Shown: positions 189 through 42,404 of the stretch, in pieces
How positions within the stretch are numbered: the first letter of the stretch is position 1
Layout: the number at the start of each line of letters is the position of its first letter
From: an uncultured Candidatus Saccharibacteria bacterium
GTDB lineage: Bacteria; Patescibacteriota; Minisyncoccia; Phycocordibacterales; PALSA-1337
Reading direction: 5' to 3'
Length of the DNA: 64,000 nt
Assembly: GCA_964367745.1 (NCBI GenBank)
Contig: CAYIYK010000001.1
Location: 28,142 to 92,141 of the forward strand
Notes under the pieces: model-generated
Seen by the model: only the letters and a program-made list of their open reading frames with translations
What the model was told of the DNA's origin: nothing
The model's database searches: none
Position numbers and translations under genes: made by a program

Positions 189-271
189 TTATCCACAGAG
201 TTATGAAATTTTGATAAAATTTTTGTGTTTCTATCTATTGCTCAAAATTTTTTAAACTATAAAATGTAATC

Positions 272-625
272 ATGAATAAAGATGATTATGTTACAAAAGA
301 ATATCTCGATTCAAAACTAAAAGATTTTGTTACTAAAGACTATCTTGATAAGAAGTTTGAACTAATGTCTATAGAATTCGAGCGACATGCTACTGATTTA
401 GCATCTGGCATTAATGGAAAAATAAAGGGTGTTTGTGATCAATTATCTGCAATAGATGAGAAGCTTACTTGCTTGGATCAGAAGGTGACTGTTATAGATC
501 AAAAAGTGACATCTTTAAGTCTCGATGTTTTTAATATTAAGGAAAATATGAAGGAAAAGGTTGATAAAAGTGAAGTTTTAGATCTAAAAAAGAGAGTAGT
601 AAAACTTGAAATTAAACTTGCTTAA
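272..625 (+). CDS. hypothetical coiled-coil protein (117 aa)
   Basis: ORF track. The protein is rich in K, E, D and L with heptad-like periodicity. No recognisable catalytic motif. Confidence 0.4.
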   Translation: MNKDDYVTKEYLDSKLKDFVTKDYLDKKFELMSIEFERHATDLASGINGKIKGVCDQLSAIDEKLTCLDQKVTVIDQKVTSLSLDVFNIKENMKEKVDKSEVLDLKKRVVKLEIKLA

Positions 626-1812: not shown

Positions 1813-1885
1813 GGGCTCGTAGCTCAGTTGGTAGAGCAATCGCTTTGCAAGCGAAAGGTCAGGAGTTCGAATCTCCTCGAGTCCA
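1813..1885 (+). tRNA. tRNA-Ala (anticodon TGC)
   Basis: Hand-folded cloverleaf: acceptor GGGCTCG/CGAGTCC with the G3:U70 Ala identity pair, D-arm GCTC-AGTTGGT-AGAGC, anticodon loop TTTGCAA, T-arm AGGAG-TTCGAAT-CTCCT, discriminator A. CCA is not encoded. Confidence 0.9.
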
Positions 1886-1887
1886 CA

Positions 1888-2286
1888 ATGAAATTAGATC
1901 CTCGACTTCATCACTATTGTCAAAATATAACTAGAGGCTATTTGAACGATGTTGTAGAGATGTATTCCTTACTAGGTTTAAAGGTGGTTTATATTCCTGA
2001 AAACAAAGACTGGATTATGGTTGCTCAAGAACCACTACAATTTGCTATTCAAATTACTCAAGTTGAGGACACTCTAATTTCTGATGTAGAGCTTAAAAAA
2101 CGAGCACATATTGCTTTTCTTTCCGATAATCCGCAAGCAGTTATAGATAAAGTCGAAGCGTGGGCAAAAGGTAAAAGTATAAAGTTCAGACAAGGCGGGT
2201 GGTCAGATATTGAAAGATACTTTGATTTACCAGATATATTTACTAATTTTGTAGTTGAAGTAATGCATACGTCTATTGAAAAATAA
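1888..2286 (+). CDS. VOC-family (glyoxalase/bleomycin-resistance fold) protein
   Basis: Starts 3 nt after the tRNA. HIAFLSDNPQAVIDKVEAWAKGKSIKF...YFDLPDIFTNFVVEVMH matches the VOC pattern HxAFxVxD...G...YFxDPDGxxxE. Confidence 0.5.
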   Translation: MKLDPRLHHYCQNITRGYLNDVVEMYSLLGLKVVYIPENKDWIMVAQEPLQFAIQITQVEDTLISDVELKKRAHIAFLSDNPQAVIDKVEAWAKGKSIKFRQGGWSDIERYFDLPDIFTNFVVEVMHTSIEK

Positions 2287-4510: not shown

Positions 4511-5185
4511 TCAAATTCTGAAATTTTTTCTTCGTATGAAGATATACGAGAACAAGACCAATCCAGTTGCGATTGTCGAAGCTGTTTCTGGTACCGCACC
4601 AGATGCAAGTGGTGTAACTGATATTTGATAATGACCACAGTTATTGATCACATCCTCGATACCAGATGCATTTCCGAAACCGAAATTGATTACCCTTGGG
4701 AGGGTATTCAGTTGTAATACATAGGAATATGAATGATCTGAACGATATTCAGGTATCCCACCTATGTTCATACCATCATATTCTCCAACAGTATTGTTCC
4801 AAACTATGTTGTATAGGCTTGTTGATTGCTCGTATGTGGTATTGTCACCAATAAAGTAATCATTCGGCACAAGAGACGTATTACCATCAAAAGCGATTCT
4901 GTGAGTTGATGATGATGTTTTGGGTACCCAACCGATTTGTGGATTGATGAATTCGTAAAATGCATCATACAGGTTGACGGTACTGTTTTTATCAAAACCA
5001 ATTCCACTGATCTTAACTCCGACTAGTCCACTGTACTTGGAAGTCGTAGTTGCTTCGATTGAATGATCGAACATTGCAATGAGGTTCTCAGACGGCCCAA
5101 TAGGGTGATAGTAATCCGTTATAACGTGCTGTGCCTTAAGGTTTAGTGACAGCATTAGCACAACGATAACCACGATATTTTTCAT
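4511..5185 (-). CDS. secreted cell-surface protein with a C-terminal sorting signal (sortase- or PEP-CTERM-like)
   Basis: N-terminal signal peptide MKNIVVIVVLMLSLNLKA. C-terminal VPETAS, then the hydrophobic segment TIATGLVLFSYIFI, then RRK. That is a motif + TM + basic-tail architecture. Confidence 0.5.
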   Translation of the reverse strand: MKNIVVIVVLMLSLNLKAQHVITDYYHPIGPSENLIAMFDHSIEATTTSKYSGLVGVKISGIGFDKNSTVNLYDAFYEFINPQIGWVPKTSSSTHRIAFDGNTSLVPNDYFIGDNTTYEQSTSLYNIVWNNTVGEYDGMNIGGIPEYRSDHSYSYVLQLNTLPRVINFGFGNASGIEDVINNCGHYQISVTPLASGAVPETASTIATGLVLFSYIFIRRKNFRI

Positions 5186-5962: not shown

Positions 5963-6496
5963 TCATTTTTTGATTTTCTTGCTACTCAATACAATAGCGT
6001 AGCAGAAACTAAGTAGTAGTTTTTTATAATGAACTACTTGATATGGAGAATACCTAATGTCGCCGTTCTCGGTATCATGCTTTACAAGATTGGTATGATC
6101 TCCTTGCTCATAGAAATGAACTATTTCGTCTAGATTAGTCCAGAGCTTGATTCGACCTTCATCCCTTTGAAAATAAAAGGCAGTGTATCGAATCGGCATA
6201 TCGCAAATTGATGGAAATTGAATCCATGGTTGCTTGCTTGAAAGCAAGTAGAGTTCTTCCTTACTCTCTTTACCAGTTACAGTGAAGTTTTTGTGACAAA
6301 GCCACTCAAAGACAACAACGATTTCTTTCTTCCTGGATCTGATATCGATTCTGAAATCCTTTATTTCACCCCTAAACATTTTGTAAGTTTTGAGGCCAGA
6401 AGAACCCTTATCTGTAGATTCGATTTGCAACTGACCACCTACATAGTCTGTAAGCTTTTCAACAAGCTTTACTCGACTCCAAAAATATCCATGCAC
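5963..6496 (-). CDS. hypothetical protein (177 aa), divergent from the lexA operon
   Basis: ORF track. No recognisable motif. Confidence 0.35.
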   Translation of the reverse strand: MHGYFWSRVKLVEKLTDYVGGQLQIESTDKGSSGLKTYKMFRGEIKDFRIDIRSRKKEIVVVFEWLCHKNFTVTGKESKEELYLLSSKQPWIQFPSICDMPIRYTAFYFQRDEGRIKLWTNLDEIVHFYEQGDHTNLVKHDTENGDIRYSPYQVVHYKKLLLSFCYAIVLSSKKIKK

Positions 6497-6560
6497 AGTA
6501 TGATCCTTTGTTAAAATTCAATTCTCGCGCCAGTATAGCACATTTATCCACAGATTTTAT

Positions 6561-6589
6561 TTGCAGGTGAACGAATGTTCACTTATACT
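6561..6589 (+). promoter_or_regulatory. sigma-70-type promoter (-35 TTGCAG, 17-nt spacer, -10 TATACT) with a LexA/Cheo-type SOS box GTGAACGAATGTTCAC filling the spacer
   Basis: The GAAC-N4-GTTC inverted repeat at 6567-6582 sits exactly between the -35 and -10 hexamers. It is 36 nt upstream of a small ORF and the lexA gene. Confidence 0.6.
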
Positions 6590-6624
6590 ATATTTATAAA
6601 AGAATAAGAATAATTATTAAAAAT

Positions 6625-6834
6625 ATGAGTAAAATAAAATTGGTACATAGTTTAAGAAGAGAGATTAAAAAGTTAAATAGTGAGATCGATTTGAAAATAA
6701 TAAAAGGTTTACCATATAAAGCAGAAGCTAGACGACATAAGTTCCTAGTATCACAGTTCTATGGATTCTATGAATCTTCAAAACAGAGCTGGCTTAAGAG
6801 GACTATGCTGACATTCGCTAGTTTTGTCCTATAA
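6625..6834 (+). CDS. small basic protein (69 aa), first gene of the SOS-box-controlled lexA operon
   Basis: ORF track. Lys/Arg-rich N-terminus. Lies 9 bp upstream of lexA. Confidence 0.4.
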   Translation: MSKIKLVHSLRREIKKLNSEIDLKIIKGLPYKAEARRHKFLVSQFYGFYESSKQSWLKRTMLTFASFVL

Positions 6835-6842
6835 TAAACTTA

Positions 6843-7406
6843 ATGCAAGATTATAAAAATAAAATCTTTTCATTCTATGAAAGGTATAAAAGAATGCCGA
6901 GCTATGCCGAAATCATGAATCTTTTGGGTTTTAAATCTAAGAATTCAGTTTATAAATTGATAAATAAACTCGTCGAAGCTGGAGTATTAGATAAAGATGA
7001 TACTGGGAAGCTTATACCAAACAGTCTATCTCAAGAAGTTAAACTTCTAGGACTTGTTGAAGCCGGTATTCCAACTGTAGCCGATGAAACTAGTCTCGAT
7101 AGTTTGAATCTTGACAATTTTCTTATTAAAAATCGTGACTCATCATATCTACTCGAGGTCAAAGGCGATTCAATGATTGAAGAAGGTATAAAGGAAGGTG
7201 ATCTTGTTATAGTGGAAAAAAGAAATGATGCAAAAGATGGTGATATCGTTATTGCCGAAGTAGACGGAGGATGGACAATGAAATTTTTCAGGAAAAAGGG
7301 GAATACCATATTCCTTGAACCAGCAAATAAAAACTATAAATCTATATATCCAGAAAATGATATGAAAATATCAGCAGTGGTTAAAGGTGTCATAAGAAAG
7401 TACTAA
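6843..7406 (+). CDS. lexA: LexA repressor (S24 autopeptidase)
   Basis: N-terminal wHTH. The Ser-Lys dyad context GDSM ... GDIVIAEVDGGWTMK ... VVKGVIRKY. Confidence 0.85.
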   Translation: MQDYKNKIFSFYERYKRMPSYAEIMNLLGFKSKNSVYKLINKLVEAGVLDKDDTGKLIPNSLSQEVKLLGLVEAGIPTVADETSLDSLNLDNFLIKNRDSSYLLEVKGDSMIEEGIKEGDLVIVEKRNDAKDGDIVIAEVDGGWTMKFFRKKGNTIFLEPANKNYKSIYPENDMKISAVVKGVIRKY

Positions 7407-7444
7407 CTATTGTAAAAATCGCAAATTAGAGTTAGAATCGTGTC

Positions 7445-41318: not shown

Positions 41319-41813
41319 ATGGAAATTAAATCTACAATAGACTGGAAAGATAAAAACTTTGACATTATATATCGAGACATAGATAACGAAAGTGAATTGG
41401 AAGGTAGAAAAGTTTCATCAGTTCATGCATGGTGTTTCTGTGGAGATAAGATGGTTATTGTTTATGCAAAGAAAAAAGATATTTGGACACCACCTGGAGG
41501 AAGGGTGGAAGAAGGAGAAAATTGTGTTGATGCTATGATACGAGAAGTAAAGGAAGAATCAAATATGAAGGTTCTGAAATGGAAGTTTATTGGTTATCAG
41601 GATATCCATGAATCTAAAGGTGTATCGACTCAAGTTAGATTTGTATGTATCGTGGAGCCATATGGTGATTTTATTAAAGATCCTGACGAGGGAGATATTA
41701 CTGAAATAAAGCTTATAGATCCAAAGGATTTTAATAAGCAATATTTCAACTGGAAAGAAATAGGTGATCATATTACAAAGCGAGCATTGGAGTTGAAAGA
41801 AAAATTTGAATAA
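41319..41813 (+). CDS. Nudix hydrolase
   Basis: Nudix box GGRVEEGENCVDAMIREVKEESN, matching GX5EX7REUXEEXGU. Confidence 0.8.
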   Translation: MEIKSTIDWKDKNFDIIYRDIDNESELEGRKVSSVHAWCFCGDKMVIVYAKKKDIWTPPGGRVEEGENCVDAMIREVKEESNMKVLKWKFIGYQDIHESKGVSTQVRFVCIVEPYGDFIKDPDEGDITEIKLIDPKDFNKQYFNWKEIGDHITKRALELKEKFE

Positions 41814-41861: not shown

Positions 41862-42404
41862 ATGAAAGATGAAAATGATATCACAATTGAAAAAGATGAA
41901 AACCTAGACGATTCTGTTGTTGTTGAAGACAATGCGACTGAAACAGTTAAGGTTCTAAAAGAAAAACTAAGGAAGGCTATTGATGAGAAACAAGAGTATC
42001 TAAATTCTTGGCAAAGAGACAAAGCTGACTTCATGAATGCAAGAAGAAGAGATCAAGAAGCTCAAAAGGACTTTGCTCGTTTTTCTAATGAAAGTCTAAT
42101 ATCTGAACTTATACCTGTTCTTGATAGTTTTAATATAGCAATGGGGAATAGAGAAGTATGGGAAAAGGCAGATAAAAACTGGAGAGTAGGTGTTGAATAT
42201 ATTGCAAATCAACTTAAGAAGGTTTTAGAAGAATTTGGTCTAAAAGAAATAGATCCTCTAGGTAAGACTTTTGACCCTATGCGAGATGAAGCTATTGAGG
42301 ATGGTAAGGCCAGTGATATCGTCACGACAGTCATCCAGAAGGGCTACGAGCTCCATGGTAAGGTTTTGAAGGCTCCAAAGGTGAAGATAGGGGAGAGTAA
42401 ATAA
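41862..42404 (+). CDS. grpE: nucleotide exchange factor GrpE
   Basis: Coiled-coil N-terminus, then FDPMRDEAI...GYELHGKVLKAPKVKIGE. Confidence 0.85.
   Translation: MKDENDITIEKDENLDDSVVVEDNATETVKVLKEKLRKAIDEKQEYLNSWQRDKADFMNARRRDQEAQKDFARFSNESLISELIPVLDSFNIAMGNREVWEKADKNWRVGVEYIANQLKKVLEEFGLKEIDPLGKTFDPMRDEAIEDGKASDIVTTVIQKGYELHGKVLKAPKVKIGESK

Follow-up and report, generated by a model that had tools for sequence, protein, structure and literature searches.

A conserved small gene and a DnaA-box-like promoter element in a predicted autoregulated lexA operon of Patescibacteria

We identified, with strong support from comparative sequence data, a predicted autoregulated lexA operon in the chromosome of a Parcubacteria/Paceibacteria-type member of Patescibacteria. 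Its promoter (P1) heads a conserved small gene that is followed by lexA. Operator and lexA belong to known kinds and are ordinary in this respect. The predicted SOS-autoregulated unit carries, in addition, a conserved DnaA-box element and a small partner protein that is new and occurs clade-wide. The operon lies in a 64-kb stretch of DNA, hereafter the window, which has a G+C content of ~35%, and the flanking genes have housekeeping functions (ddl-like, ppa, zwf, ychF, leuS and alaS). The features of the locus are listed in Table 1; 8 nt separate the stop codon of the 69-aa ORF from the ATG of lexA.

Table 1. Features of the lexA operon and its promoter region, with positions in the window
Feature	Position	Strand	Remarks
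DnaA-box-like 9-mer TTATCCACA	6544-6552	+	Perfect consensus match; DnaA binding predicted from the match
-35 hexamer of P1, TTGCAG	6561-6566	+	Read directly in the sequence
Spacer of P1, 17 nt	6567-6583	.	First 16 nt form the perfect palindrome GTGAACGAATGTTCAC
Candidate LexA operator, palindrome GTGAAC-GAAT-GTTCAC	6567-6582	.	Fills the -35/-10 spacer
-10 hexamer of P1, TATACT	6584-6589	+	Read directly in the sequence
Predicted 5' leader, ~29 nt	6596-6624	+	A/U-rich, unstructured, without Shine-Dalgarno motif; start site placed by prediction
69-aa gene	6625-6834	+	Real gene of a lexA-linked family; basic product, predicted two-helix hairpin
Probable internal promoter P2 (CTGACA, 16 nt, TATAAT)	6808-6835	+	Ends 7 nt before the lexA ATG
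lexA	6843-7406	+	187-aa self-cleaving repressor, winged-helix plus S24 domains

LexA, its operator and the promoters of the operon

The product of the second gene is LexA, as judged from profile, structure and active-site comparisons. It scored 126.3 bits against the TIGR00498 equivalog (cut-off 110.95) and contained a Peptidase_S24 domain (E = 1.3e-26), and its best PDB matches were the LexA proteins of Thermotoga (T. maritima) and E. coli. The Ala74-Gly75 cleavage site, Ser110 and Lys147 aligned with the cleavage site and the Ser/Lys dyad of E. coli LexA, and all these residues were invariant in 13 relatives. The score against the Pfam LexA_DNA_bind domain was 19.9 bits (cut-off 23.7), and the alignments with TIGR00498 and the PDB proteins spanned residues 10-60.

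All of the elements that the initial annotation had assigned to a textbook SOS-box promoter, namely a -35, a 17-nt spacer, a -10 and an operator in the spacer, are present at P1; the -35 hexamer agrees with TTGACA at only 3 of 6 positions, so the word textbook overstates the case. The full 16-mer palindrome occurred once in the window (0.00 copies in 100 shuffles), whereas the bare GAAC-N4-GTTC pattern was not enriched (2 found versus 0.88 expected). A search for a GAAC-N4-GTTC regulon, which had been recommended genome-wide and was run here on the 64-kb window, thus recovered the P1 site and a second copy that lies inside the alanyl-tRNA synthetase gene (alaS). No further operators with at most one mismatch were present in the window, and two operator-like sites with two mismatches were both located inside ORFs.

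We then compared P1 with related promoters, a set of 58 distinct segments taken from species loci, metagenome loci and contig look-ups. The 16-mer palindrome was perfect in 54 of them and had one mismatch in the other four; its arms were near-invariant and its central N4 was variable. It was always found directly 3' of TTGCAG, TTGACG or TTGACA and was followed, 0-2 nt past its end, by a -10 hexamer that read TATACT in 37 promoters and TATAAT in 16. The GAAC-N4-GTTC operator proposed for the spacer is therefore borne out, and it is this class of operator that the lexA promoters of the relatives have kept. The site has the characteristics of Cheo-type (Gram-positive) operators, i.e., the GAAC-N4-GTTC pattern, conserved arms, a variable center and overlap with a promoter. 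Because of this footprint in 58 promoters and the LexA identity of the second gene, its assignment as a LexA operator that occludes the lexA-operon promoter is well supported, with LexA binding predicted from the site; autoregulation of lexA is likewise suggested by the conservation of the operator in the 58 lexA-operon promoters. We also observed that 16 over-called protein predictions of the small-protein family start with 'GE..FTYT', which is operator DNA translated.

The predicted leader of P1 was no more stable in folding than shuffled sequence (z = 0.10), and neither an Rfam match nor folding beyond that of shuffled sequence was found in the leader or at the gene junction. In several distant relatives the leader is absent: the ATG of the small gene is located 6-7 nt past the -10, which makes the small gene leaderless.

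A DnaA box that is conserved upstream of the -35 had been missed in the initial annotation. In the window, this 9-mer ends 8 nt 5' of the -35 hexamer, with its center at approximately -48 relative to the predicted start site. Perfect copies were present in 41 of the 58 related promoters and copies with one mismatch in another 14 (55/58 with at most one mismatch), mostly 13-16 nt ahead of the palindrome and usually with 7-10 nt between the end of the 9-mer and the -35. In 28 of 33 relatives the gene preceding the operon points in the same direction as the operon, so the DnaA box belongs to the lexA-operon promoter. A divergent 177-aa ORF had been suggested to share the operator; given this orientation of the upstream neighbors, and with no conservation at that position among relatives, we ruled it out as a member of the unit.

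Only two perfect copies of the 9-mer were found in the 64-kb window. Related loci totaling 271 kb contained 38 perfect copies, of which about 28 were located at the lexA-operon promoter. The 9-mer was degenerate in a distant subfamily, whose small proteins have 89 aa, and was absent from ~55 lexA promoters of other phyla, except for one copy at -155 in a single locus (L118). We considered and rejected the possibility that it is a general promoter element, given the two perfect copies in 64 kb and the occurrence of one-mismatch copies at chance level. A few other promoters in relatives also carry it. The position near -48, together with the weak -35, is compatible with activation of P1 by DnaA, although the putative effect may go in either direction. 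None of the papers searched tied a DnaA box to a lexA promoter.

Besides P1, lexA probably has its own leaderless promoter, P2, which had also been missed in the initial annotation and agrees with consensus at 11 of 12 positions. The TATAAT of P2 (6830-6835) is made up of the Leu69 codon of the small gene, its TAA stop codon and the next T. This stop-codon TATAAT was kept in 17 of 24 close relatives versus ~7% expected from codon usage, and it sits 6-9 nt before the lexA ATG in most relatives having it; other Leu codons of the small gene vary freely. The -35 of P2 was not conserved among close relatives. Leaderless geometry, likewise overlooked before, is common in the window: of 53 long ORFs, 21 are preceded by a -10-like hexamer at 4-9 nt from the ATG, and only 7 have a Shine-Dalgarno-like motif. 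A lexA start of this kind thus fits the rest of the genome. The small gene and lexA had been placed on a single transcript. P1 does head both genes but, given the probable P2, one transcript is only part of the picture.

The small gene and its linkage to lexA

The 69-aa ORF is, from its pattern of substitutions, a real gene under purifying selection as a protein. Among 24 gap-free orthologs, the mean pairwise differences at codon positions 1, 2 and 3 were 0.29, 0.21 and 0.54, respectively. The corresponding values in the core (codons 13-45) were 0.17, 0.09 and 0.54, i.e., third positions of the core vary six times more than second positions. A word-indexed search detected 85 homologs, and a profile search of 1.8 billion representatives detected 333 clusters at 50% identity (E ≤ 1e-3); among the matches listed, nearly all members were 44-147 aa long. 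The family was confined to records of Patescibacteria, and close homologs were found in records of Candidatus Taylorbacteria, Nomurabacteria, Paceibacteria, Parcubacteria, Minisyncoccia and 'Patescibacteria group'. In these sources its members were named 'hypothetical protein' or were evidently misannotated. The family had no match in Pfam (33 members scanned), in NCBIfam or in sequence-profile searches of the PDB, and PHROGs gave only weak matches to groups of unknown function, including phrog_36493, which was matched by 8 of 33 members (best E = 8e-4). None of the papers searched described the family or mentioned the small gene or the internal lexA promoter (P2).

The linkage of this gene to lexA is strict. 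In a species scan (one genome per species), relatives of the small protein were found to be encoded at 39 loci, and every one of these loci had lexA directly downstream. Further homolog look-ups, which took in members with 42-47% identity as well as the distant 89-aa subfamily, found a Peptidase_S24 gene next door in 9 of 9 cases. The next gene after the S24 gene in related loci was often one for a Y-family polymerase or a Cho-like nuclease, or a UmuD-like gene. In most closer relatives, 7-12 nt separate the stop codon of the small gene from the start codon of lexA; in five loci these codons share bases (TGATG or TAATG). Such tight spacing suggests coupled synthesis of the small protein and LexA.

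We also used a reverse approach, in which 80 metagenome loci were found via LexA and scanned with the small-protein family profile. The small gene was located upstream of lexA in 14 of these loci (LexA at least ~54% identical). Four other loci (L057, L059, L060 and L067) had the inverted order, with the small gene downstream of lexA and the same promoter heading a leaderless lexA. Three loci (L062, L064 and L066) kept the promoter, and no small gene was present in the flanking DNA covered. The small gene was never found in ~55 loci of other phyla with LexA identity of ~50% or less. Thus, within the clade the small ORF is strongly conserved and lexA-linked in relatives, the opposite of the lack of conservation that had been named as refuting the initial interpretation.

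Multiple alignments showed a conserved core, E-x3-LN-x2-ID-x-KII-x-G-x2-Y-x2-EARRHK-x-L, with E13, L17, N18, I21, D22, I25, G28, Y31, E34, R36, R37, H38 and L41 invariant or nearly so. This core is followed by a conserved hydrophobic motif at the C-terminus, S-W-F-x-[RK]-[TS]-x-x-h-h-[AS]-[ST]-F-[VLM]-[LF]-COOH; the last nine residues have a median hydropathy of 1.4 versus -0.7 for the rest of the protein. The initial description of the protein as basic was correct (pI 10.3, net charge ~+10), and the family is uniformly basic (median pI 10.5). AlphaFold2, run with 84 sequences, predicted a two-helix hairpin (pLDDT 87; helices 3-27 and 32-68), whose second helix extends ~12 residues past the first. 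Fold searches with the predicted hairpin returned only generic hairpins. No transmembrane segment was detected in any of 255 family members (19-residue window, Kyte-Doolittle ≥ 1.6), and the maximum for the 69-aa protein was 0.19.

Possible functions of the small protein

In the mechanism that we propose, LexA would bind GTGAAC-N4-GTTCAC in the P1 spacer and block RNA polymerase. Upon DNA damage, RecA-stimulated self-cleavage of LexA at Ala74-Gly75 would open P1, and the 69-aa protein would be made together with new LexA. P2 would serve as a second, leaderless and probably LexA-independent start for lexA, which would keep the repressor up while the small protein stays off, and the DnaA-box 9-mer would let the status of the replication initiator modulate P1, either up or down. 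The 69-aa protein would act as a non-enzymatic, SOS-induced binding effector. An invariant polar patch at the hairpin turn (N18, D22, Y31, E34, R36, R37 and H38) may dock on a conserved cellular target, and the protruding hydrophobic motif ([AS]-[ST]-F-[VLM]-[LF]-COOH) may lead to membrane association or rapid proteolysis. The cell would thereby be held at a transient damage checkpoint; its most plausible form is a halt to division or replication, which would end when LexA re-accumulates and closes P1.

The most likely reading, which we hold tentatively and by analogy, is thus that the small protein may be a checkpoint-type SOS effector that blocks division or replication. We favor it because the SOS division inhibitors of Gram-positive bacteria set a precedent, being small proteins of diverse sequence that are encoded beside lexA (PMC6851548). 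YneA, SosA, ChiZ and DivS are, like the 69-aa protein, encoded by small, fast-evolving genes that are co-localized with lexA and have a LexA operator, but these genes are divergent from lexA, whereas the 69-aa gene is in the same operon (PMC6851548). A further likeness is that the C-terminal region could matter for turnover. However, YneA, SosA, ChiZ and DivS are single-pass membrane proteins, some with LysM, and a transmembrane segment is present in all characterized Gram-positive SOS division inhibitors. The analogy with yneA made in the initial annotation therefore holds for the position beside lexA and fails for the protein itself, which has no transmembrane segment (0/255 in the family), no LysM and no homology to SOS division inhibitors. 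The generic hairpin fold and the absence of homology to known SOS effectors also speak against our proposal, as do the three loci that keep the promoter without a small gene and the lack of conservation of the P2 -35. In addition, the strict operon coupling and the tight stop-start spacing would fit a direct LexA partner equally well.

Other known systems offer partial parallels. A cytoplasmic SOS effector is co-transcribed with lexA from a LexA-repressed promoter in the lexA-sulA operon of Pseudomonas and relatives. SulA is a protein of ~160 aa with a RecA-like alpha/beta fold, and its gene is downstream of lexA, whereas the protein described here is a predicted hairpin of 69 aa whose gene is usually upstream. 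Pfam scans of 33 members showed no match to SulA up to E = 10, a range in which HMMER filters drop most matches above ~E = 0.1. Another example is YnzC, a small, SOS-regulated helical hairpin encoded next to lexA, in the yneA-yneB-ynzC operon of B. subtilis. The YnzC sequence used for comparison (UPF0291/DUF896) was confirmed as PDB 2HEP; hhalign gave a probability of 0.3%, and none of the 33 scanned members matched DUF896. Sda, a replication checkpoint protein of B. subtilis, is a helical hairpin of ~46 aa that is cleared via its C-terminal residues; stress from replication or DNA damage acts on its promoter, which contains DnaA boxes, and its targets are sporulation kinases. These kinases are absent here. 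Linkage to lexA is specific to the 69-aa family, and no match to the Sda family was found among the 33 scanned members.

The main rival reading, possible although on the whole unlikely, is that the small protein is instead a direct modulator of the SOS switch: by binding to LexA or RecA, it would adjust operator binding or self-cleavage. There are parallels in DinI and RecX, whose target is RecA, and in gp7 of phage GIL01, a small helical LexA-binding co-repressor that reportedly acts on LexA of the host. In every locus where the small gene was found it belongs to the lexA operon, in either order, with stop and start codons overlapping or 7-12 nt apart. The invariance of the polar residues points to a very conserved partner; the LexA of this clade is itself highly conserved. 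The small protein is also predicted to be all-helical, as is gp7, and would resemble it in being functionally tied to LexA; gp7 is phage-encoded. On the other hand, LexA can apparently work alone, since the small gene is missing from the vicinity of some lexA loci that have the same promoter, and a conserved internal promoter for lexA would break the link between the two proteins. The family also showed no sequence similarity to any solved structure, and nothing relevant emerged when all PDB chains were searched with its profile. We regard both Sda and GIL01 gp7 as functional analogies only.

A broader reading combines several of these elements: DnaA and LexA would converge on the promoter of the SOS repressor and of new, Patescibacteria-specific hairpin checkpoint proteins that in such minimal cells would replace inhibitors of the SulA or YneA type. 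The small protein would then directly bind LexA or RecA, the divisome or the replisome, and contact with the replisome would be made through the C-terminal [AS]-[ST]-F-h-[LF] peptide. Taken as a whole, this combination seems decidedly unlikely.

Its strong positive charge could also make the small protein a damage-induced nucleic-acid binder, either a DNA-coating or DNA-bridging protein or an RNA chaperone. We consider this improbable: there was no known DNA- or RNA-binding motif or family match, fold matches were non-specific, the conserved residues include the acidic D22 and E34, and the conserved hydrophobic C-terminal motif would be left unexplained. The pair might, in principle, form an immunity module of a mobile element, with a CI-like S24 repressor and a Cro-like or antirepressor-like protein in place of cellular LexA. 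In prophages an S24 repressor is commonly accompanied by a small partner gene, and the weak match to phrog_36493 points in the same direction. The TIGR00498 equivalog score above cut-off, the housekeeping neighbors (ppa, zwf, ychF, leuS and alaS) with no phage genes nearby, the single copy per locus in 39 species with varying chromosomal contexts, and the operator of the Gram-positive LexA type all make such a module highly improbable. Finally, the position directly upstream of lexA with tight spacing and the absence of a family annotation would suit a regulatory upstream frame (leader peptide) for lexA or a functionless annotation artifact, but this reading, to which we give very little credence, is close to refuted by the strong amino-acid-level constraint across hundreds of clusters, by the confident predicted fold and by the four loci with the small gene downstream of lexA, since a frame that served only as a leader peptide would hardly be conserved together with lexA in either order.

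Implications for the SOS response of Patescibacteria

Sanchez-Osuna, Barbe and Erill (2017, Environ Microbiol 19:3465) reportedly described the LexA regulon and the LexA-binding motif of Patescibacteria. The operon analyzed here agrees with that network in the phylum-level group, the regulator, the GAAC-N4-GTTC type of operator and the autoregulated lexA. Two later articles (PMC8565304 and PMC7739468) cite this study.

Patescibacteria, a group of tiny-celled bacteria also known as the candidate phyla radiation, have minimal genomes and account for a very large share of bacterial diversity, most of it uncultured. No known SOS division inhibitor was detected here. A small protein encoded in the lexA operon throughout the family analyzed, with 333 clusters at 50% identity, is an obvious candidate for the missing link between DNA damage and the cell cycle in these organisms, whether it acts as the checkpoint effector that we tentatively favor or may instead represent a new LexA/RecA modulator. 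All parts of the system are short and portable, so that surrogate hosts and in vitro assays would allow a test of the hypothesis without cultivation. To our knowledge, no replication initiator has previously been reported to be wired directly into the SOS master switch; the conserved DnaA box ahead of lexA would be the first such case.

SOS gene island and variant lexA promoters

In several more distant relatives (loci L128, L129, L130, L132 and L040), the cluster around lexA and the small gene that precedes it, which codes for a basic hairpin protein (69 aa in the window), was longer than in the window. In one form, the small gene and lexA were joined by a UmuD-like gene and a Y-family polymerase; the other included a Cho-like nuclease (RNase_T plus GIY-YIG). 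The extended cluster forms a compact island of SOS genes, with the small gene at its head.

Variant lexA promoters were observed in two related loci. L010 contained a ~64-nt tandem duplication spanning the operator, -10 and leader; the operator was degenerate in the second copy, and the intact operator was 106 nt away from the ATG. In L062, a DnaA-box/LexA-box promoter as in the window was followed by a GC-rich leader of ~185 nt in place of the small ORF. This leader may be what is left of a decayed gene or, alternatively, a structured RNA.

Other features of the window

The 177-aa ORF divergent from the lexA operon had no match in a family search, and only weak relatives were found, 1–2 kb upstream in loci L003, L006 and L007. 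The LexA operator overlapped with a promoter-like site on the minus strand, and the latter was not conserved.

The 224-aa ORF, which matched no family, begins with a sequence similar to a signal peptide and ends in VPETAST, a run of hydrophobic residues and RRKNFRI; this C terminus resembles a PEP-CTERM-type sorting signal. The adjacent 164-aa and 180-aa ORFs had near-identical upstream sequences and resemble a tandem pair of paralogues, with the promoter duplicated as well. One called ORF overlapped the tRNA gene, the sole Rfam match within the window, and its called start is therefore probably wrong.

Coordinates of features in the window and in related loci
Feature	Locus	Position	Strand	Detail
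TTATCCACA	window	189-197		intergenic
117-aa coiled-coil ORF	window	272-625		
tRNA gene	window	1813-1885		
ORF overlapping tRNA gene	window	1828-2286		
224-aa ORF	window	4511-5185	-	
177-aa ORF	window	5963-6496	-	
Promoter-like site	window	6581-6554	-	TGAACA, 16 nt, TAAAAT
ppa	window	start 7445		TAGAAT at 7433-7438
164-aa ORF	window	41319-41813		
180-aa ORF	window	41862-42404		
Tandem duplication	L010	3858-4000		
Promoter and GC-rich leader	L062	1300-1500		
TTATCCACA	L001	545		
TTATCCACA	L022	5753		
TTATCCACA	L023	5771		
TTATCCACA	L004	2966		

Leaderless starts and further DnaA-box copies

Across the whole window, a -10-like hexamer was present 4–9 nt ahead of the ATG in 21 of 53 long ORFs, and a Shine-Dalgarno-like motif in only 7. 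Judging from these motifs, many mRNAs of this organism appear to be leaderless; ppa exemplifies the geometry.

The DnaA-box-like 9-mer TTATCCACA, found upstream of the lexA operon promoter, had a second perfect copy in the window, ~75 nt before the coiled-coil ORF. Other perfect copies occurred in relatives, with promoter-like -35 hexamers ~7 nt downstream. The extra copies near promoter-like hexamers hint that a small set of genes may be under DnaA control.
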